Shown here: in pieces, positions 29,471 to 48,331 of the stretch | How the letters are laid out: every line of letters begins with the position of its first letter | Numbering within the stretch: the first letter of the stretch is position 1 | DNA from: a virus | Taxonomy: Duplodnaviria; Caudoviricetes | DNA: 64,000 nucleotides | IMG/VR virus record: IMGVR_UViG_3300009037_000003 | Coordinates: 32,001 to 96,000 of that record | Direction: 5' to 3' (one strand) | Program-made: the position numbers and the translations under genes | Notes under the pieces: generated by a model | Seen by the model: the letters and a program-made list of their open reading frames with translations, nothing else | What the model was told of the DNA's origin: nothing | Database searches by the model: none

Positions 29471-29473
29471 AAT

Positions 29474-30205
29474 ATGCTCGATCCATGGTTTTACGATGTA
29501 GAGATCGCTGGAACACGAGTGGTTCCGGGCGTTGGCTCCCCCCACACCGAAGCACAACTTGTGGCCGACGCTGAATATAAAAGAGATATTTTAGTACAAC
29601 AGATTGTCGAAAGATACGATTTTAAGAGCAAAAGTGTGCTGGATATTGCATCGAATTGCGGCTACTGGGGGCTGGAATATGCGAAACAGGGGGCAACCCG
29701 TTACCTCGGCGTTGAAGGAAGACCGTTGTTCATCGACCAGGGCAATATGCTATGGAGCGAACAGTCGCCAAAATGTAACTGGCAGTTTCTGCAGGGCGAT
29801 ATCAACAGTAACGATACATGGAGTAAAATAAGAAGTCACGGAAAATTCGATTTTTGTTTGTGTGCCGGAATATTGTATCACATAGTAGATCATTGCACTT
29901 TGCTAGATCGTATACTTGAAGTAACAGACGATACTGTCCTTGTAGACACAAGAGTGAGTCCGGATAACGATCCGAAGACGAAACCGTTCATAGAAAGAGG
30001 AAATTGGGGGTTTGACGGAATCCATACCAACGGAAAACCCGCAACGGCGTCGCACCCGACCAAGCAGGTATTGATTAGATATTTTGAGAATAAATCGTTC
30101 GACGTTGAGGAAATTCGAGCGACTAAGCCAGTACCATTAGATATGGCAGCTAATGATAACTACGACGCGGGAAAACGAATAACTTTACTGTGCAGAAAAC
30201 GATAA
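29474..30205 (+). CDS. class I SAM-dependent methyltransferase (DUF1698/CmoB-like)
   Basis: VLDIASNCGYW, GVEGR, FDFCLCAGILYH. Confidence 0.85.
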   Translation: MLDPWFYDVEIAGTRVVPGVGSPHTEAQLVADAEYKRDILVQQIVERYDFKSKSVLDIASNCGYWGLEYAKQGATRYLGVEGRPLFIDQGNMLWSEQSPKCNWQFLQGDINSNDTWSKIRSHGKFDFCLCAGILYHIVDHCTLLDRILEVTDDTVLVDTRVSPDNDPKTKPFIERGNWGFDGIHTNGKPATASHPTKQVLIRYFENKSFDVEEIRATKPVPLDMAANDNYDAGKRITLLCRKR

Positions 30206-30229
30206 GAGTGGTATCGAAAAGGGAATAAA

Positions 30230-31417
30230 ATGAAAATTGTAAAGCTAATCGCTGAGAACATCAAGATTTTGAAGGCAATCGAGATAACTCCTGACGGAGC
30301 AACGGTTTGCGTCGGAGGCGATAACGCGCAGGGCAAAAGTTCGGTACTAGACGCCATCGAATATGCACTTGGCGGCGAGGCCTCTATTCCAGAAAAGACT
30401 ATTAGAGACGGTCAAGAAAAGGCAAAGATCGTTGTCGATTTGGGAGACTTAGAAGTCACCAGAACATTTACTACCAAGGGGACGCGACTTGTTGTAAAAA
30501 ATAAGGACGGCTCAACATTTAGCAGCCCACAAGCGGTATTAAATAAGCTGTTCACAACGCTCACCTTCGATCCAATGCAGTTTCTGCACACAAAACCTCA
30601 GGATAGAGTTGGAATTCTCAAAAGATTAATGAACATAGACTTTACATCGCAGGATGCAGAATACAAAAAGTTGTTCGAAGAAAGAACTGCGGTGAACCGA
30701 GAAGGCAAAGATCTGCGAGCCAAGATCGACGGCTTGACAAGACATAACGTTCCGGCAAGCGAAGTGTCCGTCAGTGAATTGACATCGCAATATTCCAGCG
30801 GTATGGCCATCAATACGGAGCTTGAAAACAAGACCAGACGGCTCGGTTCACTGGAAACAGAACTGGCATCATTACTGCAGAAAGTTTCAGAAACAAAAAC
30901 CAAGATAGAAGAACTTAAGATAGCCATAGCGGCGACAAAGCCAGTCGACATAACTTCCTTGTGGCAACAAATCAGTACGGCCGAGGAAACCAATAAGAAA
31001 ATTCGCGAAAATAAGCAGTACGACTATCTATCCCAAAAGCTGACCGCTATGCGAACGAAATCGCAAGAATTGACAGACCGACTAGAGCAAATCACTTCCG
31101 ACAAAGAAAGTGTGCTAAAGAACGCAGAATTTCCCGTTTCTGGCTTGGGATTTACCGAAAACGGCGTGACTTTTAATGGCGTCGACTTCGAAGAATGTTC
31201 GACAGCAGAACAACTAAAAGTATCTGTCGGCATAGGATTAGCGATGAATCCGAACCTACGAATCCTGCTGGTCAGAGAAGGGTCGTTGCTCGATAAAAAG
31301 AGTCTAGGCTTAATCGCTGAGATGGCCGAAAAGCACGATGCACAGATCTGGATCGAGCGAGTGTCCAAAAGCGAAGAGTGCCAAGTCATCATCGAAAATG
31401 GACAAATAGTGTCGTAA
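30230..31417 (+). CDS. SMC/Rad50-like coiled-coil ATPase
   Basis: GDNAQGKSSVLDAI, long coiled coil, STAEQ signature, LLVREGSLLD. Confidence 0.85.
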   Translation: MKIVKLIAENIKILKAIEITPDGATVCVGGDNAQGKSSVLDAIEYALGGEASIPEKTIRDGQEKAKIVVDLGDLEVTRTFTTKGTRLVVKNKDGSTFSSPQAVLNKLFTTLTFDPMQFLHTKPQDRVGILKRLMNIDFTSQDAEYKKLFEERTAVNREGKDLRAKIDGLTRHNVPASEVSVSELTSQYSSGMAINTELENKTRRLGSLETELASLLQKVSETKTKIEELKIAIAATKPVDITSLWQQISTAEETNKKIRENKQYDYLSQKLTAMRTKSQELTDRLEQITSDKESVLKNAEFPVSGLGFTENGVTFNGVDFEECSTAEQLKVSVGIGLAMNPNLRILLVREGSLLDKKSLGLIAEMAEKHDAQIWIERVSKSEECQVIIENGQIVS

Positions 31418-31418
31418 T

Positions 31419-32336
31419 ATGATCAATACCGTATTCATAGAGCTAACGAACAACTGCTGCTCTTCCTGCAAATCGTGCCCACAGTCAATAGGACTGTCTA
31501 GACCAAAGGGGTTCATGGACTTCGATTTATTCCGAAGAGTCGTTGATCAAGCATGGACGATGACCGATACGATTAATTTCTCATTTTTTGGAGAACAGTT
31601 GTTGCATCCGAAGTTCGTTGACTGTATGGAGTACGTTAAAAAACGACCAAAAGGCAAAAAGATTGTCATATTTTCCAATTTCCTATGCATGACAGATAAG
31701 GTTATGAAAGCCCTGATCGATGTCGAACCGGCTAAGGTATGTATCAGTATCAATGCGATATCTCAGCAATCGTACGACGAGGTTAGGGGCGGGAAATACT
31801 GCTTAGATCTTGATGGTAATATCCATGTGTCAAGTTTTTTTGATATTTTAGTTGACAAGGTCCGACGATGGTTCACAGTTAAACATCCTAGGACTAGACA
31901 TGAATTTGTGGTTAGTAGTTATACAGTAGACTATGTAGAACCATTCGTTAAACAGTGGTTGCCTCTATTGGGGAAATCCGATGATATTCTGCTCAAACGG
32001 ATCCTCACGTACGGCGGAGTTATGCCGAAAGACGCAATGACTACTTGCTCGTCGTGCAAAATGTGGAACGATAATTATCTAGTCGTAAGCTGGGATGGAT
32101 TAGTTAGTCCGTGTTTTCTTGATAATGGCATGAAACTGGTCATTGGTTCCGCAGTAGACACAACATTGGAGCATATTCAAAACGGCACAATGCGCAATAA
32201 TATTCGCAAAGCGGCTATGGCTAGAACAATAGAACCGTGTGTGAAATGCTGCGACGCGTCACACTCCATCGATACTGTAGTCTACAGGAAAGGTGATACT
32301 TACACGGAGAAGACAAGCAAATGGCGACAGCAATAA
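31419..32336 (+). CDS. radical SAM/SPASM protein
   Basis: IELTNNCCSSCKSCP (Cx3Cx2C), FGEQLLHP, C-terminal C...DGLVSPC...IG...CVKC. Confidence 0.88.
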   Translation: MINTVFIELTNNCCSSCKSCPQSIGLSRPKGFMDFDLFRRVVDQAWTMTDTINFSFFGEQLLHPKFVDCMEYVKKRPKGKKIVIFSNFLCMTDKVMKALIDVEPAKVCISINAISQQSYDEVRGGKYCLDLDGNIHVSSFFDILVDKVRRWFTVKHPRTRHEFVVSSYTVDYVEPFVKQWLPLLGKSDDILLKRILTYGGVMPKDAMTTCSSCKMWNDNYLVVSWDGLVSPCFLDNGMKLVIGSAVDTTLEHIQNGTMRNNIRKAAMARTIEPCVKCCDASHSIDTVVYRKGDTYTEKTSKWRQQ

Positions 32337-33214
32337 TTACACCAGTTGGTAATGAAAAGGTAGAAGATTTGGTCGCTATGTACCAAGATGTCAGAACCAT
32401 TGGTGATTGTCGATGGATAGTTGTTGTTGACGAGTCGACAAACCGATTATGTCGGGATTATTTACTAGAGATACAAAACCAAGACACGTCGATCGATTGC
32501 GTGTGCAACACTGGGCGAAAAAGGGGAGTTGCAGGAGCATATGTTGCTGGTAATCGACGAGCGATAGAACTAGTGGCAGATAAGATTATCGAAGTCGACG
32601 TCGGACATCCAGTGCGTTTAGTCCCAAAGATTCTTAGATTGTTAGATGAATATCCAGTAGTTTTTGGCACTAGAATGGCCAAGGCCGGAGGCGACTCACG
32701 GGCTAGCTGGTATCGAAAATTGATCAGCGGACTAGGGACTATTATGTCTAGGAATATCCTTGGTATGAAATTCACCGACTGCACATCTGGATTCCAGGGG
32801 TACAGATTGCAAGTAGCACAGTTAATGCCATTCGACGACTTTGTTTCAACAGGGCATTTTTATCAAACAGAGTTTAAATACTATTGTAGATCATTGGGTT
32901 TTGCAGAAATACCTTTTATATACAATGGTGGTAGGACGTCGTTACGAGCAAAAGCAATACTCAAAGCATTTTTACAGTTTGTCAAATTACTTATTAAGCA
33001 TGACGAGAGTAACTGCATAACAATGCCAATCGATTTGTCGGTAGAAGAAACTGAGTTATTGACCTCCATTAAGGAAGATGTCAATTATTTCATAGGCAAA
33101 GAAAGAATGTTATGTCCACCTATCCTAGCCACACGTCTTAATGTGCTACTTAGTAAGATTAAAAAATTACTTGAGGAGAAGATAGATGATGTCGGTGACC
33201 GTCGGCGTAATTAG
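32321..33214 (+). CDS. GT2 glycosyltransferase, Dpm1/polyprenol-phosphate type
   Basis: IITPVGNE, VVVDES, GVAGAYVAG, VFGTR, DCTSGFQGY. Confidence 0.8.
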   Translation: MATAIITPVGNEKVEDLVAMYQDVRTIGDCRWIVVVDESTNRLCRDYLLEIQNQDTSIDCVCNTGRKRGVAGAYVAGNRRAIELVADKIIEVDVGHPVRLVPKILRLLDEYPVVFGTRMAKAGGDSRASWYRKLISGLGTIMSRNILGMKFTDCTSGFQGYRLQVAQLMPFDDFVSTGHFYQTEFKYYCRSLGFAEIPFIYNGGRTSLRAKAILKAFLQFVKLLIKHDESNCITMPIDLSVEETELLTSIKEDVNYFIGKERMLCPPILATRLNVLLSKIKKLLEEKIDDVGDRRRN

Positions 33215-33872
33215 TTGCAATAGGCCAGAACATTTAAGAGCAAGTCTCCGCACAATAGCTTCGCAAACAGTTGCGCCGGACGAAGTTATCATTGCTGACT
33301 GCAGCGATAATTTGACAGAGATTCAAGATGTCGTTATCGAGTTCGAGAAAATCAGCGGGATTCAGTGCCAGCTGAAATGGCGACGGAAGGATCAGATAAC
33401 TAGATCTCAGGGGAGACAATTATCTTTAGGAACGGCGGCATCTCCCATACTTATTTCTACGGAATGCGACATACTTTGGCCTACTGATATCGTAGAAGAA
33501 TCTATGAAGTATTTCCAACAGAGAAAGAAGATCTACGTTCAGCCATGGATTGCAGCATACGGATCGGACGGGAAACTAAGTCCTGTCATCAAGAATCACA
33601 GATGCGGGTTTTACCAGATGTTCTGGAGAAAAGACTTTGAGGCTATCGGTGGGTACAATCCACTGCTAACTGCGGGATGGGGATTCGAGGACGCCGATCT
33701 AAAGGAACGAATGATTGCGTACGGATGCAGTGTGGCGATAGTCGAAACGGTTGTAAAACATCAGTATCATCAAAAATCGGAATCGAATGATACCAATACG
33801 ACTAATCAAAAGATTGCCAGGAATAGTTACTTTGATCAAACCACAAAAACATGGAAGATGAGATGTCCGTAA
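33186..33872 (+). CDS. GT2/GT7-like glycosyltransferase
   Basis: NRPEHL, VIIADCS, ECD, IGGYN...GWGFEDADL. Confidence 0.82.
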   Translation: MMSVTVGVISCNRPEHLRASLRTIASQTVAPDEVIIADCSDNLTEIQDVVIEFEKISGIQCQLKWRRKDQITRSQGRQLSLGTAASPILISTECDILWPTDIVEESMKYFQQRKKIYVQPWIAAYGSDGKLSPVIKNHRCGFYQMFWRKDFEAIGGYNPLLTAGWGFEDADLKERMIAYGCSVAIVETVVKHQYHQKSESNDTNTTNQKIARNSYFDQTTKTWKMRCP

Positions 33873-34594
33873 ATACTGACGTTACGATCATCATTAAGAC
33901 ATTCGAAAGACCGGAATGCCTCAAACGATTAGTTACGAGCATTAGACGGTACTATCCACTAATAAAGATTATTATAGCCGATGACAGTAAAACTCCTGCT
34001 ACATTGCAGGACGAGAACATAGAAATATGTACCATGCCGTTTGCATCCGGCAATTCAAAAGGTAGAAATTTCGCAGTCGCTAGAGTAAAAACGAAATATT
34101 TCATGACCCTAGATGATGATTTTATTTTCACCGAGAAAACTTCGTTGCGGAAACGGTATGATATTCTTGAGACGACGGATATCGATTTAGTCGGTTCAAA
34201 TGTCGACGACGGACAGAAAAGGCCGGGGATGCTTATTCGCATAGTAGATAAATCGCTTTATCGATGGCCTGGATCGAACGGTAGTTCATCGGGGTATCAG
34301 CTTTATGACTATGTGCCGCAATGTTTTATGGCAAGAACCAAACAGTTTGCCGATGCCGGAGGGTGGGACGACGATTTTTTGGTTTGGGATCATCTTGTAC
34401 TTTTTTTGAGATTATTAGGCAAGCTTAAAATTACAATGATACCAGAAGTCGATATTCTCCATAGGCAGGAATCTGGCAAATTGTACAAAGAGCATCGCTG
34501 GGGAGTCCGGCTCCAGAGGGATAGGCAACTGTTGACGACTAAATACGGTTTGATCGAGAAACCACCATTAATGGCGCCGAGAGAAGACAAATGA
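33863..34594 (+). CDS. GT-A glycosyltransferase resembling beta-1,4-GalNAc transferase (B4GALNT/GT12)
   Basis: VTIIIKTFER...SIRRYYP...IIADDS...MPF...GRN.AV..V.TKY...DDDFIF...DLVG. Confidence 0.8.
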   Translation: MSVNTDVTIIIKTFERPECLKRLVTSIRRYYPLIKIIIADDSKTPATLQDENIEICTMPFASGNSKGRNFAVARVKTKYFMTLDDDFIFTEKTSLRKRYDILETTDIDLVGSNVDDGQKRPGMLIRIVDKSLYRWPGSNGSSSGYQLYDYVPQCFMARTKQFADAGGWDDDFLVWDHLVLFLRLLGKLKITMIPEVDILHRQESGKLYKEHRWGVRLQRDRQLLTTKYGLIEKPPLMAPREDK

Positions 34595-35325
34595 AAAATA
34601 TTTGGATGTACTGGGACAATTACCCTGGGCAAACTACTCCGACATACATACGATTATGCCATGAAACGATTCGTCGGCACTGTTCCAAAAACTTGCAGAT
34701 TAATATCGTGACAACAGAGAATGTTAGAGACTTCTTACCACAGATCGATAATAAATTTTTTGCCATCGCACAGATCAATAACAAGTCGAATTATTTACGA
34801 TACAAGCTACTTAGTGAATTCGGTGGTATCTGGTTAGATTCGGATTTCATTTGTGTCGAAAATCTTGAACCGATGACAGAATTGTTGTATGACGGAATTG
34901 AAGTTGTCGCCACGGCAAGTCTTGGGTTGAAATACGGTGAACCAGAATGCGGGTTTCTAGTGTCAACTCCTGGTAACCAAATAATCAGGAGCGCCATATC
35001 GTATGTCGAACATATGATAGACCTTTATCCGCCAGGACACATATTTCCATGGGGGTCTCTCGGTCCTGCTGCGATCAGGCAGGCGGTTAAGGGTAGAAAA
35101 TATCATCATTTGGACAGCAGACTGACTATGCCTATTCCATCGTGGGAGGCTCATAGGTTCGGTACGTCGGAGTCTCTAGAAAGACTTTGGCCGGGATTTT
35201 ACGGGATAATGTTATACCATCAAATGTTCAAGCAGGAGAAAAGTCCGATACTAACAATGAGCGAAAACGAATTAATGACGTCGCCGCTACTTATATCTCA
35301 AATTTTCAGGAAAGCAGTATCATGA
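34591..35325 (+). CDS. GT32/capsular polysaccharide synthesis-type glycosyltransferase
   Basis: IWMYW, SNYLRYKLLSEFGGIWLDSD, LGP. Confidence 0.85.
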   Translation: MKNIWMYWDNYPGQTTPTYIRLCHETIRRHCSKNLQINIVTTENVRDFLPQIDNKFFAIAQINNKSNYLRYKLLSEFGGIWLDSDFICVENLEPMTELLYDGIEVVATASLGLKYGEPECGFLVSTPGNQIIRSAISYVEHMIDLYPPGHIFPWGSLGPAAIRQAVKGRKYHHLDSRLTMPIPSWEAHRFGTSESLERLWPGFYGIMLYHQMFKQEKSPILTMSENELMTSPLLISQIFRKAVS

Positions 35326-36149
35326 CTTCGTGCAATGAAGAACGAATGTGTTTTTTGACCGTAGCGAATCTAGCTTATCAACACTATATCCCGTGGTATA
35401 TTCTTTTTCTGAACAGAGCTTATCCGCAGGCAAAAAAAATTGTACTGTTAGACAGTAATATATGCGAACACATCAAAAAGAACCTCGATTCCGTCGGAAC
35501 TAATAATTGCGAAATACGCGAATATGCATTTGGTAAGCATAGGTCGGTTGACGGTAATGCGATTAAAATTTTGAGGTGGCTATACTACGAATCATTCCTA
35601 GAAGATTATGATTGTGTTGCTATCGGCGATGTCGATCTTGCGATATGTCGAGAATCACCCTCTTTTATGGAGCAGCATCTTCGGCATTGCGATAAAACGG
35701 GATTGCCATACAGTAATTACGTTAGGAAGTCTAATACAAACCTTAAGCCTAGGATGAGCGGGATGCATGTTATCAGACCTAAAAGATGGTTTGCCGCCGT
35801 TCTCTCAATCATAAACGAATATCGAGAAAAGTTACACACGATAAAGCTATCGAACGAACATATACTATACAGAATAATTGCCGATTCGCCACTTGGTGAA
35901 CCACCAGCAGATCTGTCATCGACATATTGGTCATCTATTGTAACTTCGGCGCATCACGGAATTCATATTCCGATAGCGGTCAATCAGAATGCTATAAAAC
36001 AACTTCGAGCAATTCCAGGATTTATGTATCATAAGTACGAATTCTTGGCATGTATCGATACGAAATCTTTCAAGGAATTGTCTAAAGCTTTCCCTACTAC
36101 CGGTAGAAATTTTGAAGCCGTAAGGAAAATATATCAAAATGAAGATTAA
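35322..36149 (+). CDS. hypothetical protein, possible GT-A glycosyltransferase
   Basis: LRWL...IGDVD DxD-like motif, NEHILY; inside the GT cluster. Confidence 0.55.
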   Translation: MTSCNEERMCFLTVANLAYQHYIPWYILFLNRAYPQAKKIVLLDSNICEHIKKNLDSVGTNNCEIREYAFGKHRSVDGNAIKILRWLYYESFLEDYDCVAIGDVDLAICRESPSFMEQHLRHCDKTGLPYSNYVRKSNTNLKPRMSGMHVIRPKRWFAAVLSIINEYREKLHTIKLSNEHILYRIIADSPLGEPPADLSSTYWSSIVTSAHHGIHIPIAVNQNAIKQLRAIPGFMYHKYEFLACIDTKSFKELSKAFPTTGRNFEAVRKIYQNED

Positions 36150-37095
36150 AACATTTACATTTCATCCTTCGGCACGTCTACGCATGGCTATTCTCGAACC
36201 GACGCTAATCAGACATGGCCATAGTATTGTCAACAGTCTGTCCGAAGCCGATTTGTGTATATTGGATGTTATGCATGTTCATGACGTTCCGGCGGACGTG
36301 ATGGATTCGGTTTGTAATTTTGGCGGCAAAATAGCGTTGTCATCGCTTGGTGACTGGAATTTATTTCGCCTTACGACGAACGACGTTTCAATCCCCGACG
36401 AATTGATAGAAAAAGCATCGGCATTCTTAAAGGTCCAGTGGTCTTGCGACGACAGTATATATGACAGTCGCATAACAAACAAACGAATAACTGTTCAACC
36501 GTTTTTAATCGGTGGAATTCCAGCTCCAACATCGACATACATGAAAAAACCGGTTATTTCGTTTTACGGTTTACCGACTGGTCACCTTGATGTAGAAAAA
36601 AATACCAGGATCCTGGCATGTCGGACACTAAAAAATCATCCTGCTTTCCGTGGAGGTATTACTGGCCAAGAACCGGGCGCGATAAGGAACGGTATTTCCG
36701 ACATCGTTATATCATCAAGGCCTCGTCCTATCTATCTCAACAATCTTAACACTTCGCTTATCTCTCTTTGTTTACCTGGCAACAGTCCTTTAAGCTATCG
36801 ACATTTTGAATCGCTCGGAGTCGGGTCATGTGTCATGTCTTGCGATTTAAACAACTGCAAATGGCTAAATAGAATGACCCCAGGAATCGACTACTATGAA
36901 GTGAAATCAGATTTATCGGACTTACTGGTAGTCTGCGACCTTGCATTGAGCGATATCGCCAGAACCAGAGAAATAGCAATGAATGGGTATGCGCTGTATC
37001 AAGATTATTACCGATTGCAACCGGATAATTCGATGACCGATAATATGTGGAACGATATCTTGCTTCAGTTTCATAGATGCGGCATAGAATTATAG
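36139..37095 (+). CDS. GT-B type glycosyltransferase (GT90/GT1-like C-terminal domain)
   Basis: SLCLPGN...YRHFESL..GS, PGIDYYEVKSDLSDL, IAMNG. Confidence 0.65.
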   Translation: MKIKTFTFHPSARLRMAILEPTLIRHGHSIVNSLSEADLCILDVMHVHDVPADVMDSVCNFGGKIALSSLGDWNLFRLTTNDVSIPDELIEKASAFLKVQWSCDDSIYDSRITNKRITVQPFLIGGIPAPTSTYMKKPVISFYGLPTGHLDVEKNTRILACRTLKNHPAFRGGITGQEPGAIRNGISDIVISSRPRPIYLNNLNTSLISLCLPGNSPLSYRHFESLGVGSCVMSCDLNNCKWLNRMTPGIDYYEVKSDLSDLLVVCDLALSDIARTREIAMNGYALYQDYYRLQPDNSMTDNMWNDILLQFHRCGIEL

Positions 37096-37123
37096 AAAAA
37101 TGGCATTACCGGGAAGGTATAAT
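37095..37123 (+). promoter_or_regulatory. putative promoter gAAAAA-N17-TATAAT, probably giving a leaderless dnaE-C mRNA
   Basis: A5 37096-100, TATAAT 37118-23, ATG at 37129. Confidence 0.55.
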
Positions 37124-37128
37124 CTAGC

Positions 37129-39519: not shown

Positions 39520-39529
39520 GGAGCAAAGT

Positions 39530-39940
39530 ATGTCAGAATTAGCAGTGTATGGTATTGGTTCTGTAGTAGTTGATCCAGAGCTGAAGACAGTTGGTGATTC
39601 ATCTGTGTTACGATTCAAAGCAGCTTTTAACCGTAATTACAAGACCAGAGATGGCGAATGGAAGGAAGACCCCGTTTTTATTCGCTGCGAGCTATGGGGT
39701 GAGCGAGCGACAAAAGTAGCTTTGAAGAAGGGAACATTAGTTTATATTAAGGGGTACGTAAAACAAGACAGCTATGAATCGAAGGACGGGCAGAAGATGA
39801 CTATGCTCTACTTGGCAGTATCTGATCTAAACGTTTGCGAACGCACCAAGGCCGGTTCAGAAGTAAAAACTCAGAAAGCAACCGTTACGGGTACTGTTAG
39901 CATGGCGGATAGCCAAAACATGGACGATATGCCTTTCTAG
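39530..39940 (+). CDS. ssb: single-stranded DNA-binding protein
   Basis: DPELK, FIRCELWG..A, KGTLVYIKG, acidic DDMPF tail. Confidence 0.92.
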   Translation: MSELAVYGIGSVVVDPELKTVGDSSVLRFKAAFNRNYKTRDGEWKEDPVFIRCELWGERATKVALKKGTLVYIKGYVKQDSYESKDGQKMTMLYLAVSDLNVCERTKAGSEVKTQKATVTGTVSMADSQNMDDMPF

Positions 39941-39951
39941 GAATTGTTTGT

Positions 39952-42708
39952 ATGACAAAAAGAAGAATATTGTTCGTTGGCGAAGCTTCTTATCTGGCTA
40001 CCGGATTCGGCGTGTATTGGAACGAAGTCTTAAAACGGCTATATCAGGATAAAGATTTGGAGATCGCAGAACTTGGCTCCTACGCCTACAAAGGCGATCC
40101 GAGAAATAGTCGGGTTCCGTGGAAATTTTATCCGGTCATACCAGATCGTAACGATAAAGACGCAATGAATAAATATTCGTCTATAAAGATCAACGAATTC
40201 GGTGCGGGAATATTTGAGGAAGTATGCCTGGAATGGCGCCCGCAAATAATCTGCGCCCTCCGGGACTTCTGGATGGATTCCTTCATCCTAGATTCACCAT
40301 ATCGCGACCTATTCAAGTTTCTGTGGATGGCAACGATAGATGGAGAACCGCAGCGTGATTTATGGTTAGATTACTACAAGCGATGCGACGGTATTTTGAC
40401 ATATTCGCACTATGGAATGGATTTGCTCAAAAAGACAGGAAGGCATGGAACTAAATTAATAGATATCGCGTCTCCTGGTGCTGATTTGGATGTTTTTAAG
40501 CCCCCGGACGATAAGCGTGTCCATAAGGCGAAGCTTGGGATAGATCCTGATGCTATTATTATTGGAACGGTCCAACGCAACCAAGCGCGCAAAAAGTACT
40601 ACGACCTCATCGAAGCCTTTTCTATCTGGCAGAATAAAGCAAACGCCAAAGGACGCACAGATCTTACGAAAAGAACATTTTTGTATCTGCACACCAGTTA
40701 TCCAGACGTTGGTTACGATATAGGAAAAGCTATTCGTGAATTCAATGTCGGCAATAGAGTCGTAATGACTTATTTATGCAGTAATTGCCACACTGCTTAT
40801 CCGGCATTCTTTTCTGGTTCGACGGCTATATGTACAAAATGCAAGCAATACACAGCGCATCCGCCAAATGCGTCTCATGGAGTAAGCAGAGAAGTACTGG
40901 CGGAGATCATGAAAGCGTTTGATCTATACGTCCAATATTCCGTTTGCTTACACCCGGAAACTCCCATTATGACATCGAATGGATGGGAAACTATTGGAAA
41001 TATTAAAATAGATGATCAGGTCATTGGTAGCGATGGCAAATTGCATCGTGTCTATAAGACAATGAAAAATCCATCTGACGCATGTTACGACGTTAAAGTC
41101 AAGGGAAGACCTTGGTCAGTTACGGCCACATGGAATCATCCATGGATGGTAGTAGACCAGACGAAGTCGTCACGAGGTTTAGAGAGCATCGTAAATGAGG
41201 ACAGAGAGTTCAACAAACTGGGTAAGCCGCGTCCAAAATTGAATTTTATCTATAAGCAGACAGAAGAGTTGCAGCCTGGAGATTTGCTAGTCAGTAAAAT
41301 TTCAGAAGAGGAAATCGTACGCAACTATAATTTGCCGTTTCTAGATGAGGACATGGCCTACTATATAGGATTGTTCACAGCAGATGGTCATGCCAATGAA
41401 ACATGTGGGCAATGCACGATTACGTCTCATGTATCAGCACAATCCAACGTTCTTGACATCTCGAAAAGGATCGCTGAAAGATTGGACAAAAACGCGCATC
41501 AACAAAACGTAAAAGGAAGATGTGCTGTTGTCACCAATATTTGTGATACAAAATTGCGCAATGTATTTAGGAAAATGTGTTATCACGAGGATAGAACAAA
41601 ACAATTGCCACCGGGCTGTCATCTGTGGCCAAGAAACTTGCAAGAACAATTAGTGCGCGGCTTAATGGCTGGAGATGGTCACTGGAGCAAGAGGTGTGAA
41701 TGGCTGAATGTTTTTTGTACAACTTCTGTGCATATAGCCAAAACGTTATGCCCTATACTCGAACGACTCGGTTGGTATTATTGTTGCAATGTTCAGCATA
41801 GAGAAGCCAGTGGAAGAATTCCTACATATCGTTTCGAAATTAGGACAGATGGGAAAAAAAGTAACCACGAAACATTATATAGAGATGGATTCGTTTTAAT
41901 AAAAGTAAAGTCATGCGAGAAAAGTGAATATAGCGGAGAAGTCGTCAATATAGACGTTGAAGATGACCATCATTACGTGACACTTGAAGGATTAAAGCAC
42001 AACTGTGAGGGTTATGGCCTTCCAATGGGGGACGCAACAGCATGCGGCGTGCCAGTTGCGGCTGTGGACTATTCGGCCATGCAAGACCATTTGCGGTGTC
42101 CGACGAGTATTCCAATCCCTGTAGGTAGATTTTTCCGAGAATCAGTAGTGGAAACGGAACAGAAAAGAGCGCTACCAGATAACGAAAAATTCGCAGACAT
42201 TATAGATAAATTCGTGCGATTGTCAGAATCAGTCCGTACAGAACGAGCTATAAAGACTAGACAATATGCCATAGAACCTGTCGCAACGTACGGCAAAATG
42301 ATGCCAAGATATAGTTTCGACAGGACGGCGGAAATATGGCGCAATGTTCTAAAAAATACAGAAGTGAACGATATTAGCGAAACTTGGCTTAGCCAAACGC
42401 CAAGAATAATTACTCCTGACTTGAAAGTGCCGAAACAAAATATGAGTAACTCGGAATTTGTGAACTGGGCTATTTCTAATGTTTTGCGAAAACCAGATAT
42501 GCTTAATACATGTTTTGCGAATGACTTGCTTGAGGCGTTGAATACCGGCCTTGTAGTTTCTGGTGATAGAAGAGTACCATTCGACCGCAATGCGCTAATA
42601 CAGCGTTTTCTGGACATAGTTTCAACTTTTAATCATGCGGAATCGCAACGGATTGCAATCGCATCTCCCAACAATAAAAATTGCAGCATAAACGGCATTT
42701 GGCTCTAG
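39952..42708 (+). CDS. GT4 glycosyltransferase with zinc finger and intein
   Basis: ATGFG, PGADLDVFKP, RNQARK, YLHT, CSNC/CTKC, FDLYVQYSV|intein|CEGYGLP...ACGVP. Confidence 0.88.
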   Translation: MTKRRILFVGEASYLATGFGVYWNEVLKRLYQDKDLEIAELGSYAYKGDPRNSRVPWKFYPVIPDRNDKDAMNKYSSIKINEFGAGIFEEVCLEWRPQIICALRDFWMDSFILDSPYRDLFKFLWMATIDGEPQRDLWLDYYKRCDGILTYSHYGMDLLKKTGRHGTKLIDIASPGADLDVFKPPDDKRVHKAKLGIDPDAIIIGTVQRNQARKKYYDLIEAFSIWQNKANAKGRTDLTKRTFLYLHTSYPDVGYDIGKAIREFNVGNRVVMTYLCSNCHTAYPAFFSGSTAICTKCKQYTAHPPNASHGVSREVLAEIMKAFDLYVQYSVCLHPETPIMTSNGWETIGNIKIDDQVIGSDGKLHRVYKTMKNPSDACYDVKVKGRPWSVTATWNHPWMVVDQTKSSRGLESIVNEDREFNKLGKPRPKLNFIYKQTEELQPGDLLVSKISEEEIVRNYNLPFLDEDMAYYIGLFTADGHANETCGQCTITSHVSAQSNVLDISKRIAERLDKNAHQQNVKGRCAVVTNICDTKLRNVFRKMCYHEDRTKQLPPGCHLWPRNLQEQLVRGLMAGDGHWSKRCEWLNVFCTTSVHIAKTLCPILERLGWYYCCNVQHREASGRIPTYRFEIRTDGKKSNHETLYRDGFVLIKVKSCEKSEYSGEVVNIDVEDDHHYVTLEGLKHNCEGYGLPMGDATACGVPVAAVDYSAMQDHLRCPTSIPIPVGRFFRESVVETEQKRALPDNEKFADIIDKFVRLSESVRTERAIKTRQYAIEPVATYGKMMPRYSFDRTAEIWRNVLKNTEVNDISETWLSQTPRIITPDLKVPKQNMSNSEFVNWAISNVLRKPDMLNTCFANDLLEALNTGLVVSGDRRVPFDRNALIQRFLDIVSTFNHAESQRIAIASPNNKNCSINGIWL
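40945..42003 (+). mobile_element. intein (353 aa) with apparently intact LAGLIDADG endonuclease
   Basis: CLHPETPI start, ATWNHPW block B, IGLFTADG and RGLMAGDG, VVNIDVEDDHHY...KHN|C. Confidence 0.92.
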
Positions 42709-42718
42709 GAGTTCAGAA

Positions 42719-43897
42719 ATGAAGATAGGTTATATCGGTGTATATCGAGACGGTACCGGTTACGCCAAGCAGGCAATAAACAACATAAGGGCAATAAGTA
42801 CCAGCTCTCTAGACGTCGTCGCAAAATATGTTAATCTGGCATCATCACGAAATGACGCGGTGATTCCGGAACTGTTATCGCTAGAAAATAAAAGTCTAGA
42901 CAAGGTCGACGTCGTTATTCAACACGTATTACCGCACATGTTCGAGTACAAGCATGGGGTGAAGAATATAGGTCTATTTGACTGGGAGACAAGCCACTTC
43001 AAAAGATCTATTTGGCCATTCTGCTGCAATCTTATGGACGAAATATGGGTACCGACCATCCAAAATAAGTACGCATGCATAGATAGTGGCGTAACATCGC
43101 CAATACGAATACTACCGTGCGCGTGCGATCCTTTAAGGTTTAAACACAAACCACTTCCGGCCAGGATAGACAAGTCTGGGAAAAGATGCATATTCTATAC
43201 GATTGGCGAAATGACTCGTAGAAAAAATATTATAGCATCAATCCGGGCATTTTACCGTGCGTTCTCCGCCAGAGACGACGTAGTCTTAATTATAAAAACG
43301 AGCATGCCAGGTAAAACGCCGCAGCAGAGCAGCTCCGCCATAAGAGGAATTGTCGAAGACATTAAGGAATCTACGCACATTTACCGCGACAAATCTCAAT
43401 ATCCGCCGATTATGTGCATTACCGAACGTTTGCATGACGAACAAATAGATCAACTCCATGTGTCGTGCGATATTTTTATTTCTTTGAGCCATACCGAGGC
43501 GTGGGGTATCCCAATGCATGATGCTATGGGTTTTGGGAATCCGGTGATTGTCAGCAATCATGGTTCTTATCCGGAAATCGTATATCCGCAGGCTTGTGAC
43601 TATTGGATGCCCGACCAAAGATGCTTTAGACACCCAGGGACGGTTGATAGTGGGTGGCTGGTACCTGGACAGCTATCTCCATGCTTCGGGCAGACGGAGA
43701 GCTTCCCTGACTTGTATACTGGGTCAGAGGACTGGTTTGATCCATGCGTTACATATGCTGCCGAATGTATGCAAGAAGCGTATCGCTTGTGGCAGGATAA
43801 ATCGTTGTCTAGCAAACAAGAAGCGGCGAAAAATCGGGCGACTAGTTTTGACTATCGAAGCGTTGGCAAAATCGCAGAATCATTGCTCCTAGGATAA
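42719..43897 (+). CDS. GT4 glycosyltransferase
   Basis: GTGYA, DEIWVP, RRKN, DIFISLSHTEAWGIP..DAMGFGNPVI. Confidence 0.9.
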   Translation: MKIGYIGVYRDGTGYAKQAINNIRAISTSSLDVVAKYVNLASSRNDAVIPELLSLENKSLDKVDVVIQHVLPHMFEYKHGVKNIGLFDWETSHFKRSIWPFCCNLMDEIWVPTIQNKYACIDSGVTSPIRILPCACDPLRFKHKPLPARIDKSGKRCIFYTIGEMTRRKNIIASIRAFYRAFSARDDVVLIIKTSMPGKTPQQSSSAIRGIVEDIKESTHIYRDKSQYPPIMCITERLHDEQIDQLHVSCDIFISLSHTEAWGIPMHDAMGFGNPVIVSNHGSYPEIVYPQACDYWMPDQRCFRHPGTVDSGWLVPGQLSPCFGQTESFPDLYTGSEDWFDPCVTYAAECMQEAYRLWQDKSLSSKQEAAKNRATSFDYRSVGKIAESLLLG

Positions 43898-43908
43898 GGG
43901 AACTATCT

Positions 43909-44919
43909 ATGGCTACAATACTGTCTGGAATACTTCGCAGAATAAACAGAGATAAAACAAAGCCGCTGAACATCTTGACTGGACTAGCACATGAGGGATA
44001 CAGCACCACCATGGCCAAAACTGGTCACGAGTTTTACTTTGTCACGAACAAGAGTTGGCCACAATGGAATGTCCAAGAAAGAGATGTGCCGTCGAATATT
44101 CATCTTCTCGGCGGGGAAGATCTAAAACGTCAATTGAACTGCGATATAACTTTTGACCTTGTACTATCTCAAAAATGTTTAGATCACTATCCAGTACTTA
44201 ACCAAGTGGCTTGTCAAATGAATATACCGCTGATCGTGTTGCATCACAGTCTGCCATGGATCCCCCCAGTCGGCAATTGGTCGTGGGAGACGGTCAAGGA
44301 TATTGGGAATCAGCGATGCGACCACAATGTATTTGTAAGTAATTTTAGCGCCGAAGCATGGGGTAGGGATTCCGACGGCGACAATATTTCTATTATTAGA
44401 CACGGCATGGATACCGAGTATTGGCAAGGATGGAGCGGCGGCGACGGCAAGATTATGACAGCCGTATGGGATTTTAAACGACGCGATTCAGTTTGTGGCT
44501 ATTCGTTGTTCCAAGAGGTTACACGTGATTTGCCAGTTAACATCTGGGGCGATTCCCCAGGCGTTTCTGTTATGGCTAAGAACCGCGATCATCTTCGGGA
44601 CTTATATCGGCAAGCTTCGGTATATTTTAATAGCACACTTTGGTCGTCGTGCCCATTTTCGCTACTTGAAGCAATGTCAGTTGGATGTCCGATAGTCACT
44701 ACAGCAACTACCATGATGCCAGAATTCATCCGCGATGGCGTAAATGGTTTTGTATCAAACGACCCAGGAGTTTTGAGGGAAAAGTTGTCGTTGCTTATTT
44801 CCGACCCAGTACTCGGCAAGCAGATAGGCGAAGCTGGTCGACGAACAATACTTGAATTATTCAACGAATCGCAATTTATAAATAAGTGGAATGCTGTTTT
44901 TAATACCGTTATGGAATAA
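43909..44919 (+). CDS. GT4 glycosyltransferase
   Basis: VFVS, IRHGMD, SLLEAMSVGCPIV, DGVNGF, IGEAGR. Confidence 0.9.
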   Translation: MATILSGILRRINRDKTKPLNILTGLAHEGYSTTMAKTGHEFYFVTNKSWPQWNVQERDVPSNIHLLGGEDLKRQLNCDITFDLVLSQKCLDHYPVLNQVACQMNIPLIVLHHSLPWIPPVGNWSWETVKDIGNQRCDHNVFVSNFSAEAWGRDSDGDNISIIRHGMDTEYWQGWSGGDGKIMTAVWDFKRRDSVCGYSLFQEVTRDLPVNIWGDSPGVSVMAKNRDHLRDLYRQASVYFNSTLWSSCPFSLLEAMSVGCPIVTTATTMMPEFIRDGVNGFVSNDPGVLREKLSLLISDPVLGKQIGEAGRRTILELFNESQFINKWNAVFNTVME

Positions 44920-44925
44920 TTCCCG

Positions 44926-44953
44926 CAAAAAGTGGTCTCCATAAACGTATAAT
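44926..44953 (+). promoter_or_regulatory. putative promoter cAAAAA-N16-TATAAT
   Basis: A5 44927-31, TATAAT 44948-53, then AAGGAG and ATG 44970. Confidence 0.55.
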
Positions 44954-44969
44954 CCAGTAAGGAGATATT

Positions 44970-45446
44970 ATGAGACTCAATTTCTGCTATGACAATCAGG
45001 CGATGCATAATTTTACAAATATCGGTAAAGAGCCGATAGCGGTATCTGCCGATGGATACGACTACAGACAGGGACAGGTTTTGTGTTTGGATTGGATTGC
45101 CGATGACAATTCTGTCGAACTCATTAACGCAGGATACAGTTTACATTCTATTCCGATCCAAGATTTACCAGATGCGATACGCAATTGGAGCAACAAACTA
45201 ATCAGCAGCGGAGGAGCATTAATAGTAAACATATATGACATCGACGTAGCGGCGATGCATTACTCGAATGGTCAGATCACTCTACGTGAGCTTAACTCTA
45301 TTCTCGGGTATGACCGTACTTATAAGGCGGCAATCAGTAGGTCCGAATTAGAGAAATGTCTCGTACAGGCCGGTTTAGTTATTGAGTCTAAGAGCTACGA
45401 CGGGATTACATTTACCGTTATGGCTGTACGGGGGTGTCGATGCTAG
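44970..45446 (+). CDS. degenerate methyltransferase-11-like protein
   Basis: MRLNF..., DNSVELINAGYSLH, W..KL..GG.L; glycine-rich SAM motif absent. Confidence 0.55.
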   Translation: MRLNFCYDNQAMHNFTNIGKEPIAVSADGYDYRQGQVLCLDWIADDNSVELINAGYSLHSIPIQDLPDAIRNWSNKLISSGGALIVNIYDIDVAAMHYSNGQITLRELNSILGYDRTYKAAISRSELEKCLVQAGLVIESKSYDGITFTVMAVRGCRC

Positions 45447-46150
45447 TAACCCAATGTAGTCGCTGCTGTTTCTTTGTCAGCGAGAACAATGTGTGCGGTT
45501 TTGGATACGATACAACCCTATTAGATGGCAAATCAGTATCGCTTGGATGTTGTAGATACATGCGAAGCATAGCTTGGCTAAAGAGATATGTCTCTGGTTG
45601 GAAAAACAAACTCGATCAAGAAACTTCTTTAAAAATAGATGCCATTGTTGTGTTCGACGACGATAGACATCGATTAGATGATCTGTCGAAGACTATCGGT
45701 AGCAATAGGTACGGCGACATAGTTTCTCATACTATTATCGCTGATGTCACCGGGTCTCATAATCGGCTGAATACAGCTCTCAACTTTATCAGATCTGGTT
45801 GTAAGCAGGTGATCGTCGACATGAGTACGGAGAAAGAATCTCCTATTGAAATAGAAGATACTATTTATCGCATCAATAGACAATTCGTAAAATCGCCATT
45901 CTTTTTGGTAGTCGATGCCGGTAAAGATATACCCGACTTGTTTGTAGCAAAACAGACAATACGCAAAGACCATCGATCGATTCATTGGTATTTTTCAGAA
46001 ACAGATGTGCTTAGCGATGGAATTTTCCTATCACGCGGGTACAGCACAATTATGTCTGGAGCATCCAGTATGACTTTTACGCAGAGACTAAGATCTGTTG
46101 AGACAGAAATGGAAGTAGAACTATCACGGCCACTATATGAATCCAGATAA
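45440..46150 (+). CDS. hypothetical protein, N-terminal Cys cluster, possible degenerate GT-A fold
   Basis: CSRCCF...C...C; IIAD, FLVVDAG. Confidence 0.55.
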   Translation: MLVTQCSRCCFFVSENNVCGFGYDTTLLDGKSVSLGCCRYMRSIAWLKRYVSGWKNKLDQETSLKIDAIVVFDDDRHRLDDLSKTIGSNRYGDIVSHTIIADVTGSHNRLNTALNFIRSGCKQVIVDMSTEKESPIEIEDTIYRINRQFVKSPFFLVVDAGKDIPDLFVAKQTIRKDHRSIHWYFSETDVLSDGIFLSRGYSTIMSGASSMTFTQRLRSVETEMEVELSRPLYESR

Positions 46151-46898
46151 AGAAAATATCTCAATAGTAATCCCATCGCACAATAACGAGGCTACAATTG
46201 AAAGGGCCGTACGATCAACGACAATTGGGGCTAGACCTGCAGACGTTGTTGTCGTCGGAGATAACGATAGCAGCGATGGAACATATGACATACTCTGTGG
46301 TATTATCGGAGCTAAACCAGTAACAATTGACGGAAGCACCGGTCTGCCGCCAAAAGCTAGTGGTGTCATTAACGACACAAAGGTGATCATATTCAAAAAG
46401 CGATTTAGCGCGACAGGAAATACTATCAACACAGCCATCCAAACATATTGGAAAGACGTCACTGTATTTGGATTTATGGATCCGACAGCTTATTATGGTC
46501 CAGATAAGATTAAAAGTTCTGTTGAGGTTATGCAGCAATATCCAACAGTGGCATGCGTCGTCAGCGACTGCGATCGTGTACATCCCGATGGTAGAATCGA
46601 GAGAATTTTTCGTCCATCGTTCGATGCAGCGAAATTGATGAACAGTTATTGTTATGATGGAAATTATCTTTTGCGACCGCAAGTTTTTGGCATAATGAAG
46701 TATGGATTTAACGATCAGTTATGGTCTATGCATGACTACGATCTACTATTACGGATTGCTGACATAGGTCTGATCTACCATGTTCCATCATCGCTGCATA
46801 CAATTAAGCCAGCCGTGGACAACATAGAGGAACATTGCGAAATGCTACTAGTCCAGAAATTAGCTCGCGGTAGAAAAGTAAAAAATGAAAAAGGTTAA
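46137..46898 (+). CDS. GT2 glycosyltransferase (DxD altered)
   Basis: ISIVIPSHN, DNDSSDGT, FMDPT instead of DAD, HDYDLLLRI. Confidence 0.8.
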   Translation: MNPDKENISIVIPSHNNEATIERAVRSTTIGARPADVVVVGDNDSSDGTYDILCGIIGAKPVTIDGSTGLPPKASGVINDTKVIIFKKRFSATGNTINTAIQTYWKDVTVFGFMDPTAYYGPDKIKSSVEVMQQYPTVACVVSDCDRVHPDGRIERIFRPSFDAAKLMNSYCYDGNYLLRPQVFGIMKYGFNDQLWSMHDYDLLLRIADIGLIYHVPSSLHTIKPAVDNIEEHCEMLLVQKLARGRKVKNEKG

Positions 46899-47478
46899 AA
46901 ATCAACAGCACAGACTGGCCGTAAGGAGACAGGCGGATGCCATGCAGGAAATGCAAAAGATAGGAGTACCTATAAATGACAAGCGACAGAAGATAGGTAT
47001 TATCTTTGACCATCTTGGTGCTAGTCAATGTGCGTATTTCGGTATTACGAATATCAATAATATATGTCGTACATATGCCGGTATCGATATCGTGATATTT
47101 ACGCCGCATGTCATACCTCCGTGCATAAAGCCATTATGTCCCGTGTTCAATCTATCGTTTCTTGTGTCATGGGATGGTAGTCCGTTGATAACAACATGTC
47201 CATTTACTACGACCATAGGGCTAAGTACACGTTGCCACAATTTATACTATTACGCATTCAGTGTCGATCATGTAAATATCCATAATGATTACAAGAAGTT
47301 AAAATCGACTATTACTGATCCACGAGTCAAGACACTAGTTCAGTGTCCTGATCACAAATCGCTACTAGAGCAGGAATTCGACATATCGGTTTATGATACG
47401 ATAGTGCCAGATTTTGATTTAGAAAAATTGGTCCGGATAGTGATGGAGGATACAAATGCCGGACATCCCAATATATAA
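46885..47478 (+). CDS. hypothetical protein in the GT cluster
   Basis: Coupled ORF; possible GT-B half-domain. Confidence 0.55.
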   Translation: MKKVKNQQHRLAVRRQADAMQEMQKIGVPINDKRQKIGIIFDHLGASQCAYFGITNINNICRTYAGIDIVIFTPHVIPPCIKPLCPVFNLSFLVSWDGSPLITTCPFTTTIGLSTRCHNLYYYAFSVDHVNIHNDYKKLKSTITDPRVKTLVQCPDHKSLLEQEFDISVYDTIVPDFDLEKLVRIVMEDTNAGHPNI

Positions 47479-48328: not shown

Positions 48329-48331
48329 TCT

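Follow-up and report, generated by a model that had tools for sequence, protein, structure and literature searches.

The capsid glycans of chloroviruses consist of a conserved five-sugar core with strain-specific decoration, and soluble viral glycosyltransferases (GTs) are used for them (PMC7826918). For mycobacteriophages, glycosylation of capsid and tail-tube subunits by phage-encoded GTs has been proposed or demonstrated, with surface shielding as the suggested role of the virion glycans (Freeman et al. 2023, as cited in PMC12619734 and PMC11256854). Four core GT orthogroups have been described in "moraphages" (PMC12619734), and the cyanophage S-SCSM2R encodes 13 GTs (PMC12801897). Here, we analyzed a 64,000-nucleotide stretch (referred to as the window; bases 32001-96000) of the viral contig IMGVR_UViG_3300009037_000003 (Duplodnaviria; Caudoviricetes), in which two blocks of GT and tailoring genes, block I (29474-37095 in window coordinates) and block II (39952-47478), are interleaved with replication genes. 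Our data suggest that this region could represent most of a two-tier, phage-autonomous glycan assembly system, with a core shared across the clade and an island of exchangeable genes between the two halves of DnaE.

Core cassette, variable island and late cassette

Gene identities were assigned using Pfam, NCBIfam and PHROG profiles with curated Pfam cut-offs. Relatives were recovered with an alignment of homologs of core GT4 number 2, yielding 36 further IMG/VR loci (37 in all), and presence counts were obtained by tblastn of the window proteins against the 37 loci; because contig ends cut some of these loci, some per-gene counts are lowered. All genes of 29474-47478 lie on the + strand. The two blocks and the replication genes bordering them are as follows.

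27194-29470 (+): N-terminal half of DnaE (PHP, pol III alpha), left border of the island; PHP 1e-40, DNA_pol3_alpha 1e-60
29474-30205 (+): class I S-adenosylmethionine (SAM) methyltransferase; Methyltransf_25 1e-5, Methyltransf_23; TIGR04290 5e-12; homolog in 0/37 loci
30230-31417 (+): AAA_23/SbcC-like ATPase; AAA_23 6e-11; phrog_1499 4e-89; not in the visible flanks of relatives
31419-32336 (+): radical SAM/SPASM enzyme; SPASM 1e-7, Radical_SAM 1e-6; CX3CX2C intact (CCSSCKSC, residues 13-20)
32321-33214 (+): GT2; Glycos_transf_2 1.5e-5, 25.4 bits (cut-off 23.3)
33186-33872 (+): GT2 with beta-4-galactosyltransferase-like C-terminal motif; Glyco_transf_7C 4e-10; Glycos_transf_2 6e-7, 30.0 bits
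33851-34594 (+): GT2; Glycos_transf_2 1.8e-15, 57.7 bits; homolog in the island of relative G003 at 41% identity
34591-35325 (+): GT32-like protein with DXD sugar-binding region; Caps_synth (PF05704) 1e-11, 45.2 bits; Gly_transf_sug (PF04488) 4e-8, 34.2 bits (cut-off 23)
35322-36149 (+): 275-aa protein with GT-A-style hydrophobic-DxD motif (AIGDVD); tblastn matches in 8/37 loci
36139-37095 (+): Glyco_trans_1_2/GT90-like GT (structural lead); Atlas features 0.97 to viral clusters partly carrying PF13524, structure TM 0.70-0.77
37129-39519 (+): C-terminal half of DnaE (finger, HhH, OB) with intein, right border of the island; DNA_pol3_finger 3e-43, HHH_6, Intein_splicing 2.5e-7
39530-39940 (+): SSB; SSB 5e-17
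39952-42708 (+): core GT4 number 1 (GT-B, retaining-type; Cys4 zinc-ribbon insert, C-terminal helical extension, intein); phrog_2170 5e-11; 37/37 loci
40945-42003 (+): 353-aa intein in GT4 number 1; residues 332-684; flanks YVQYSV/CLHPE and LKHN/CEGYGLP
42719-43897 (+): core GT4 number 2; Glycos_transf_1 1e-12, 48.4 bits (cut-offs 26-27); 37/37 loci
43909-44919 (+): core GT4 number 3; Glyco_trans_1_4 6e-14, Glycos_transf_1 1e-13, Glyco_transf_4 1e-6; 51.6 and 52.9 bits for the first two profiles (cut-offs 26-27); 35/37 loci
44970-45446 (+): 158-aa small methyltransferase-like protein; family consensus begins MKLNLGCGNDIR, which is class I motif I; 22/37 loci
45434-46150 (+): 238-aa protein with Cys-rich N-terminus and GT-A-like domain (weak lead); invariant C8, C11, C21, C40; 19/37 loci
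46137-46898 (+): core GT2; Glycos_transf_2 5e-8, 33.5 bits; 29/37 loci
46885-47478 (+): 197-aa stand-alone GT-B N-terminal half-domain; AlphaFold2 (AF2) pLDDT 90; 24/37 loci

An initial annotation, made by a model from the sequence letters, had described a multi-enzyme, phage-borne glycan system interleaved with the replisome, and Pfam confirmed its gene list nearly item by item. Its count of at least nine GTs stands in part: eight GTs in the window are Pfam-backed, with one more elsewhere in the genome, and nine in the window are reached only by counting the GT90-like gene. All four GT2 genes (32321, 33186, 33851 and 46137) reach the Glycos_transf_2 cut-off of 23.3 bits, and a scan of the whole genome recovered three of them a second time. 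The methyltransferase and radical SAM tailoring genes that it had named were likewise supported by Pfam and NCBIfam, and by the CX3CX2C motif. For the radical SAM enzyme, SPASM (32.6 bits) lies above its cut-off and Radical_SAM (29.3 bits) stands at a cut-off of 29.5; NCBIfam gave no equivalog-level assignment, and about 25 metagenomic homologs were found, some on contigs of 43-149 kb. The SbcC-like (SMC-like) ATPase, previously taken as a member of the system, is an island passenger with no evident sugar role.

Structural models are what point to the GT90-like protein, the GT-A-like protein and the stand-alone GT-B half-domain as GT candidates. The protein at 36139-37095 is itself without a Pfam match, and its Atlas model gave TM-scores of 0.64-0.77 to PF13524 and PF05686 clusters. 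The GT32-like protein carries DSD at residue 83 and has homologs in 6 of the 37 loci and in relative G002. The 275-aa protein matched nothing in Pfam, PHROG or NCBIfam, and a relaxed Pfam scan of its family returned only sub-threshold matches; its start is most likely the ATG at 35322, not 35187, because an ATGA overlap is present there.

In block II, GT4 number 1 comprises about 570 aa without its intein and falls below the Pfam cut-off because the intein splits the domain. The model of an intein-free homolog (pLDDT 91) has a two-Rossmann-domain GT-B fold, for which the top Foldseek match in the PDB was the chlorovirus NY-2A GT 3oy2 (E 2e-18, identity 14%), followed down to E 1e-13 by the retaining GT4s GlgM, MshA, PimB' and BshA; a BFVD fold search returned generic viral GT4s only. 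Its conserved Cys4 set is C281, C284, C299 and C302. GT4 number 2 has 237 homologs, and the best 120 of the 237 share 43-61% identity with it, many on contigs of 100-181 kb; the single cellular label among these 120, a Chloroflexi metagenome-assembled genome (MAG), belongs to a phage-sized contig of 160 kb. The 158-aa protein had been called a degenerate methyltransferase, an apt description: relatives keep LNLGCG, and the window copy reads MRLNFCYD, so that SAM-binding motif I is degenerate. Its family gave only sub-threshold methyltransferase matches in a relaxed Pfam scan and no significant hhalign result against the island methyltransferases. The Atlas model of the 238-aa protein (pLDDT 0.57) reached TM-scores of 0.56-0.63 to GT2 clusters, and hhalign of its family against the clade GT2 was not significant. 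The 197-aa protein aligned in VIA-align with Z 16.2 to 6eji (root mean square deviation 2.4, 153 residues aligned) and with Z 12-14 to many GT4s, its best Foldseek match being 6ldq, an isolated N-domain construct of sucrose-phosphate synthase. The model is a single GT-B N-terminal domain with the crossing helix and therefore suggests a stand-alone acceptor-side half of a GT4 without the donor-binding half. Sequence-profile searches of the PDB with the three core families of unknown function gave no match.

As judged from gene content across the 37 related viral contigs, block II is a clade-wide core, and its order is constant, always behind DnaE-C and SSB. The block I methyltransferase, ATPase, radical SAM enzyme and first GT2 matched in none of the 37 loci, and the other block I genes matched in 1 to 9. 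Four complete relatives carry islands of 5.2-9.7 kb with 8-13 genes between DnaE-N and DnaE-C that are mostly unrelated to the window genes. By Pfam, these islands are again sugar-tailoring sets. They encode GT2 and Glyco_trans_1_2 GTs, methyltransferases of the FkbM and Methyltransf_11/23/24 families (at most three in one island), a PfkB sugar kinase, a HAD phosphatase, an aldolase-like protein of class II, a cupin of the mannose-6-phosphate isomerase type and an APH-like kinase, and one further match, to a sulfotransferase, is weak. The expectation that block II would prove to be the core and block I the variable part was borne out both over the 37 loci and in these four islands.

Wherever both halves of DnaE are visible, the split falls at one and the same residue, and Pfam detected no split-intein signature on either side of it, where the N-half ends and the C-half begins. 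The distant subclades have a gap of 0.2-1.8 kb between the halves, with one exception (L036, 3.6 kb), and the gap genes scanned there encode an RNase_T-type (DnaQ-like) exonuclease, a uracil-DNA glycosylase (UDG; family-4-type) or a Macro domain. We conclude that the split and its gap are ancestral, that block II is old and that the sugar island is an expansion specific to the subclade of the window.

A third conserved cassette, beyond the view of the initial annotation, lies outside the window; the two blocks that it had delimited were confirmed, and the system extends further than they do. A gene for GDP-mannose 4,6-dehydratase (GMD; PF16363, 9e-110) is located at genome positions 128076-129125 (-), about 32 kb past the window end. 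The reported absence of nucleotide-sugar synthesis is thus correct for the window and not for the genome. Upstream of GMD are a sigma-factor gene, a clade-specific 300-aa protein without a domain match and a Glyco_trans_1_2 GT; downstream are a 169-aa protein and an intein-bearing large terminase (TerL). The order 300-aa protein, GT, GMD, 169-aa protein, TerL is kept in five of five complete relatives, and GMD is found in 15 of 16 clade records, including all ten that are at least 90% complete. A whole-genome scan found no further GT-B or short-chain dehydrogenase/reductase enzymes in this genome beyond those named. Since GMD is encoded, the phage would supply at least the first step towards a GDP-6-deoxyhexose.

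Several of these genes are interrupted by inteins. The intein of GT4 number 1 begins with Cys1, ends with HN and is followed by C+1; it sits directly before the EGYGLP motif, is missing from intein-free alleles and gave weak Hom_end_hint and Intein_splicing matches and an endonuclease match (phrog_4645, 2e-6). Intein-bearing alleles of GT4 number 1 number 13 of 38 (the 37 loci and the window), including L002, L010, L012, L014, L017, L018 and L023; the inteins of relatives occupy three different sites, close to residues 105, 131 and 337 as counted without inteins, and L010 carries two inteins in one gene (1318 aa). The GMD of one relative (L052/L053, G005:C1:14158-16179) is a 714-aa frame with its domain halves about 1 kb apart, most likely through insertion of an intein. 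TerL (1120 aa; genome 124228-127590 (-), L042:7229-10591) contains an intein with a LAGLIDADG endonuclease (LAGLIDADG_3, 4e-21), and in the complete relative L046 (G003) about 1.2 kb interrupts both RecA (residues 72/73) and DnaB (223/224), probably again as inteins. The clade is unusually rich in inteins. Because an intein endures only where its site is strongly conserved and its gene is not lost, the glycan core would not be an optional moron; the inteins in a GT and a sugar dehydratase argue for strongly conserved core functions that are probably essential.

Acceptor and product of the pathway

The explanation that we favor, with moderate confidence and by analogy with characterized viral systems, is a glycan made in the cytoplasm and linked to virion proteins, its core constant and its decoration variable. 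The first tier would be the old, clade-wide core, comprising the zinc-ribbon GT4, two further GT4s, the methyltransferase-like protein, the GT-A-like protein, the GT2 and the GT-B half-domain, and would also take in the conserved pair of GT and GMD beside the terminase. The second tier would be the hypervariable tailoring island (block I), lodged in this subclade in the ancestral gap of the split dnaE, which swaps GT2, GT32-like and GT90-like GTs, several methyltransferases and genes for a sugar kinase, phosphatase, isomerase and aldolase between genomes, with a radical SAM gene here. Assembly of the chain could take place in the cytoplasm, on an acceptor other than a lipid, and draw on UDP- and GDP-sugars of the host together with a phage-made GDP-6-deoxyhexose, giving a glycan whose inner core is constant and whose outer sugars vary and are partly methylated. 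Its end point would most likely be one or more virion surface proteins, and its role may be shielding or host-range tuning.

Virion proteins are favored as the target by elimination and by analogy, and the pair of GT and GMD stands at the head of the packaging/structural operon. The apparent solubility of all the enzymes also counts in favor of this target, as does the core-plus-variable gene pattern, which parallels the capsid glycans of chloroviruses (PMC7826918) and the clade-specific fibril glycans of Megavirinae (PMC10117803). The initial annotation had also considered virion proteins the most plausible target and hypermodified DNA the alternative; the former is still preferred and the latter has weakened, although the target is one that we infer. 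Several observations weigh against a virion glycan. A sequence scan found no Ser/Thr-rich tract in any virion open reading frame (ORF). The late proteins contain 15.3% S+T compared with 13.0%, with a doubled frequency of SG/TG, an excess that we rejected as an acceptor sign, tail and fibre proteins being generally rich in S, T and G. No reductase, epimerase or aminotransferase that would act after GMD in the pathway was found in the 84%-complete genome. The position of the blocks in the replication module would also suit a DNA-directed enzyme set, the Cys4 modules of GT4 number 1 and the 238-aa protein could bind nucleic acid, and the solubility of the GTs is compatible with peripheral enzymes acting on host lipid-linked intermediates, which often lack transmembrane (TM) segments. 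What the chain is attached to, which sugars it contains and what it is for are all inferred from genes of an uncultured clade. At the distal end of the late operon, paralogous proteins of 226 and 211 aa without a family match (window 49483-50163 and 53528-54163, both -; 24/37 loci) are among the ORFs richest in S/T and SG/TG.

We consider it improbable that the system remodels the host envelope, with soluble GTs acting at the membrane on host lipid-linked or cell-wall glycans (lipopolysaccharide [LPS], capsule, teichoic acid or S-layer). Such remodelling would prevent superinfection or keep progeny from binding to debris again, and the island would track host surface diversity. Large T4-like cyanophages with many GTs and nucleoside diphosphate (NDP)-sugar enzymes have been interpreted in this way (PMC12801897), peripheral GTs require no TM segment, the weak GT32-like, Caps_synth, EpsD-like and TuaG-like matches point to polysaccharide enzymes, and the structural neighbours of GT4 number 1 and the half-domain include WaaG, WaaB, PglA, PimA and TarM, which belong to LPS, teichoic and lipid-linked pathways. 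However, in hydropathy scans all GTs and tailoring proteins were free of TM-like segments; in the whole genome, no ORF had more than four of them and no multi-pass protein lay in or near the blocks, so that no protein has the many TM segments of a flippase, polymerase, ligase or ABC exporter (these were hydropathy scans, not Wzx/Wzy profile searches). The initiating phosphoglycosyl transferase family PF02397 was absent from this genome and five relatives, and PF00953 was absent from this genome. A lipid-linked export route is unlikely because the enzymes lack TM-like segments and PF02397 and PF00953 are missing. A strict core of about nine genes with inteins, kept in phages of 28-61% GC, is also a poor fit to host-specific acceptors, and GT4 number 2 has no close cellular homologs among its best 120 hits, bar the Chloroflexi label.

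Sugar hypermodification of DNA, in which the zinc-ribbon GT-B enzymes would glycosylate phage DNA after replication and so block restriction or CRISPR while the island diversifies the glycan, seems to us distinctly doubtful. It would agree with the position of the cassette between SSB and recombination genes, kept over deep divergence, and with the Cys4 modules in two core proteins; the DNA glucosyltransferases of T4 also have the GT-B fold. Phage clusters are known that decorate DNA with mono- to tri-saccharides, heptose among their sugars (bioRxiv 10.1101/2023.12.21.572611), or 5-hydroxycytosine (5hoC) with poly-arabinose (PMC13326640). Every published route needs a hydroxylated base and starts from 5-hydroxymethylcytosine, 5-hydroxymethyluracil or 5hoC, for which the phage relies either on a ThyA homolog or on a C5-methylase with TET (bioRxiv 10.1101/2023.12.21.572611; PMC13326640). 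ThyA-type PF00303 was absent from this genome and five complete relatives (control genomes matched), and the C5-methylase family PF00145 from this genome and eight complete relatives; TET/JBP PF12851 gave no match in this genome, and the control genomes gave none either. The ThyX present is of the normal type, a UDG occupies the dnaE gap of several distant relatives, and several methyltransferases together with a 6-deoxyhexose pathway are not known in DNA glycans. Restriction-site counts (found/expected), taken in this genome and in the 37 loci (L001-L037), also bear on this question, as an indirect test.

CTCGAG: this genome 0/10.9; 37 loci 7/47
GGGCCC: this genome 0/5.0; 37 loci 1/37
GTGCAC: this genome 0/7.5; 37 loci 7/60
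GCCGGC: this genome 2/19.2; 37 loci 25/66
CCGCGG: this genome 1/9.4; 37 loci 29/43
GGATCC: 37 loci 11/95
CTGCAG: this genome 24/34.1; 37 loci 26/81
GAATTC: 37 loci 253/270
TCTAGA: 37 loci 249/287

The first seven of these sites are strongly and selectively avoided; GAATTC and TCTAGA, and also AAGCTT, are near expectation. In this genome, 4-mer palindromes have a median observed/expected ratio of 0.88, compared with 1.01 for other 4-mers (p = 3e-5), and site avoidance is common to contigs of 28-61% GC; the pattern may hint at the restriction enzymes of the hosts. Selective avoidance of restriction sites is the mark of DNA that is exposed to restriction enzymes, and selection against such sites is not expected where DNA is blanketed by bulky sugars, as in T-even phages. 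The clade-wide avoidance therefore argues against a blanket hypermodification, and a DNA target is weakened because PF00303 and PF00145 are absent and restriction sites are avoided. The genome also encodes an N6/N4 DNA methyltransferase (PF01555, 1.5e-25; genome 131928-132632 (+), L042:14929-15633), and DNA methylation by this enzyme together with site avoidance may be the anti-restriction strategy of the phage. We see a slim chance that the core cassette, with its three GT4s, the GT2 and the Cys4 GT-A-like protein, glycosylates nucleic acid without the known hydroxylated-base precursors, either phage DNA at specific sites or the unusual tRNA-like RNAs of the phage; if true, this would be new chemistry.

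The pathway might instead lead to another cytoplasmic product, such as a free or lipid-anchored polymethylated oligosaccharide, a small-molecule glycoside, glycosylated RNA (e.g., tRNAs) or a non-virion protein, a possibility that strikes us as remote to much the same degree as DNA hypermodification, if not slightly more so. Soluble GT4s with methyltransferases resemble the enzymes of the cytoplasmic methylmannose polysaccharide of mycobacteria (7qsg is among the fold matches), many odd tRNA-like genes occur in the genome, and the radical SAM/SPASM group mostly matures peptides and cofactors; however, none of this is specific, 7qsg ranks 20th among generic GT4 matches, and beside the cassette we identified neither a carrier nor a peptide precursor, nor any partner that would modify tRNA. 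As for a cellular polysaccharide locus mis-joined to a phage contig, the Chloroflexi MAG label indicates that such contigs get mis-binned, and no support for a chimera was found. GC content (0.38-0.48) is even along the contig, GC and skew are even across both blocks, and the genes are co-oriented and overlapping, with replication genes on both sides. The same architecture recurs in 37 independent viral contigs, and each of the ten clade records of at least 90% completeness that we examined has it, four of which carry terminal repeats, so that an assembly artefact, a hazard that the initial annotation had raised, can practically be dismissed.

Genomic setting and neighbouring genes

The contig is 139,974 bp long, 84% complete by CheckV and without a terminal repeat. 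Nearly all ORFs of window 3-48823 are on the + strand in an almost gapless array, in which the sole gap of more than 35 bp between 27000 and 49400 is 44920-44969 (50 bp). This early array holds genes for nucleotide metabolism (class II ribonucleotide reductase, ThyX and an HD-domain protein), recombination (RecA and two PD-(D/E)XK nucleases) and replication (DnaB, primase, DnaE in two halves, SSB and a Whirly-like protein). Promoter and terminator scans of 29400-49399 gave results at chance level, and no 9-mer occurs five or more times in the intergenic DNA. Blocks I and II, lying within the replication module, are probably co-transcribed with the replication genes. A megablast search of GenBank phages with the entire region returned no match; because portal and DnaE have only distant matches (23-34% identity), neither a cultured close relative nor a host can be assigned.

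Directly behind block II are two genes that belong to replication or recombination, outside the glycan set.

47456-48823 (+): conserved 290-aa protein and Whirly-like ssDNA-binding protein; Whirly 1.9e-7; 26/37 and 23/37 loci, respectively

Other genes of the array include a homolog of the BREX Lon-like protease BrxL (window 6456-7967; BrxL_ATPase 8e-93, BrxL_N 3e-13), a defence-system component that is unusual in a phage, and a ClpP protease (8829-9488) and a trypsin-like peptidase with an N-terminal hydrophobic segment (10672-11487), both near ThyX and the HD-domain protein. A free-standing NUMOD4/HNH_3 homing endonuclease with a helix-turn-helix domain is encoded directly upstream of DnaE-N (26457-27197), its homologs being scattered over 5 of the 37 loci.

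Comparison with known systems

GT-rich phages have already been published, and the GT set described here, which had been called very large, is not exceptional beside the 13 GTs of a cyanophage (PMC12801897). The T4-like cyanophages S-SCSM2R, P-SSM2 and S-SCSM1 (PMC12801897, PMC10611076) are similar in being lytic and aquatic and in encoding about ten or more GTs and NDP-sugar enzymes including GMD, and the target is unproven there too. The likeness is one of gene content, with no homology claimed: those phages are T4-like with a family B polymerase, in contrast to the split DnaE here, and their genes have been described as cell-wall/LPS genes and not as a core-plus-variable system inside a polymerase gene. 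Mycobacteriophages with virion glycosylation are reported to carry about two GTs (two in Maravista, PMC11256854), compared with at least nine here, and differ from our phage in that GMD, methyltransferases and a variable island are present here, with most genes in the replication module.

The cultured Microcystis phage Mel-JY01 (PP395634.1, 83.4-89.7 kb; L054), on which a literature search found no paper, has a run of GT, GT, GT4-like, GT-A, small methyltransferase, two unknowns and GT2 that adjoins clamp-loader, PD-(D/E)XK and IMPDH/GMPR genes, a composition and setting parallel to those of block II. In tblastn, only GT4 number 2 (22.5% identity) and IMPDH matched between Mel-JY01 and the window, and it is not a close relative. 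The gene clusters for DNA hypermodification (bioRxiv 10.1101/2023.12.21.572611; PMC13326640) share with our blocks several GTs, some of them related to LPS or teichoic acid enzymes and adding up to tri-saccharides, near DNA-metabolism genes; they differ in having a ThyA homolog or a C5-methylase with TET, whereas our searches found no ThyA-type or C5-methylase gene in this phage and its clade avoids restriction sites.

Virus-encoded soluble GTs, sugar methyltransferases and GMD are found together in the chlorovirus system as well (PBCV-1; A064R, A111/114R, GMD; PMC7826918, PMC5408694), with a conserved core and variable decoration, which is seen here as a gene pattern only, and the best solved-structure match of GT4 number 1 is the chlorovirus GT 3oy2. 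However, chloroviruses infect eukaryotic algae and ours is a tailed bacteriophage; at 14% identity, the match to 3oy2 establishes no sequence-level orthology, and the glycan and capsid acceptor of chloroviruses are chemically proven, whereas the present system is known from genes alone. The fibril clusters of Megavirinae (PMC10117803) are likewise clade-specific viral genes, whose products make unusual sugars and attach them to the virion surface; these are giant eukaryotic viruses with different sugars and enzymes, and they have been characterised experimentally.

In the literature searched, the clade-wide two-tier architecture and the use of a split-dnaE gap as the landing site of the variable island are new, as are the stand-alone GT-B half-domain, the zinc-ribbon GT4 and the interruption of a GT and a sugar dehydratase by inteins. 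Irrespective of its target, the cassette provides enzymology with a defined collection of soluble GTs and methyltransferases. Should the virion prove to carry the glycan, phage surface shielding and variation, the evolution of viral glycan diversity and the polymerase gap as a landing pad would become testable. The clade, whose phages measure 130-180 kb and are present in many metagenomes, would then represent a bacterial-virus counterpart of the self-glycosylation of chloroviruses and mimiviruses, with a core that is fixed and an outer layer that varies like a serotype with the genes of the exchangeable island.

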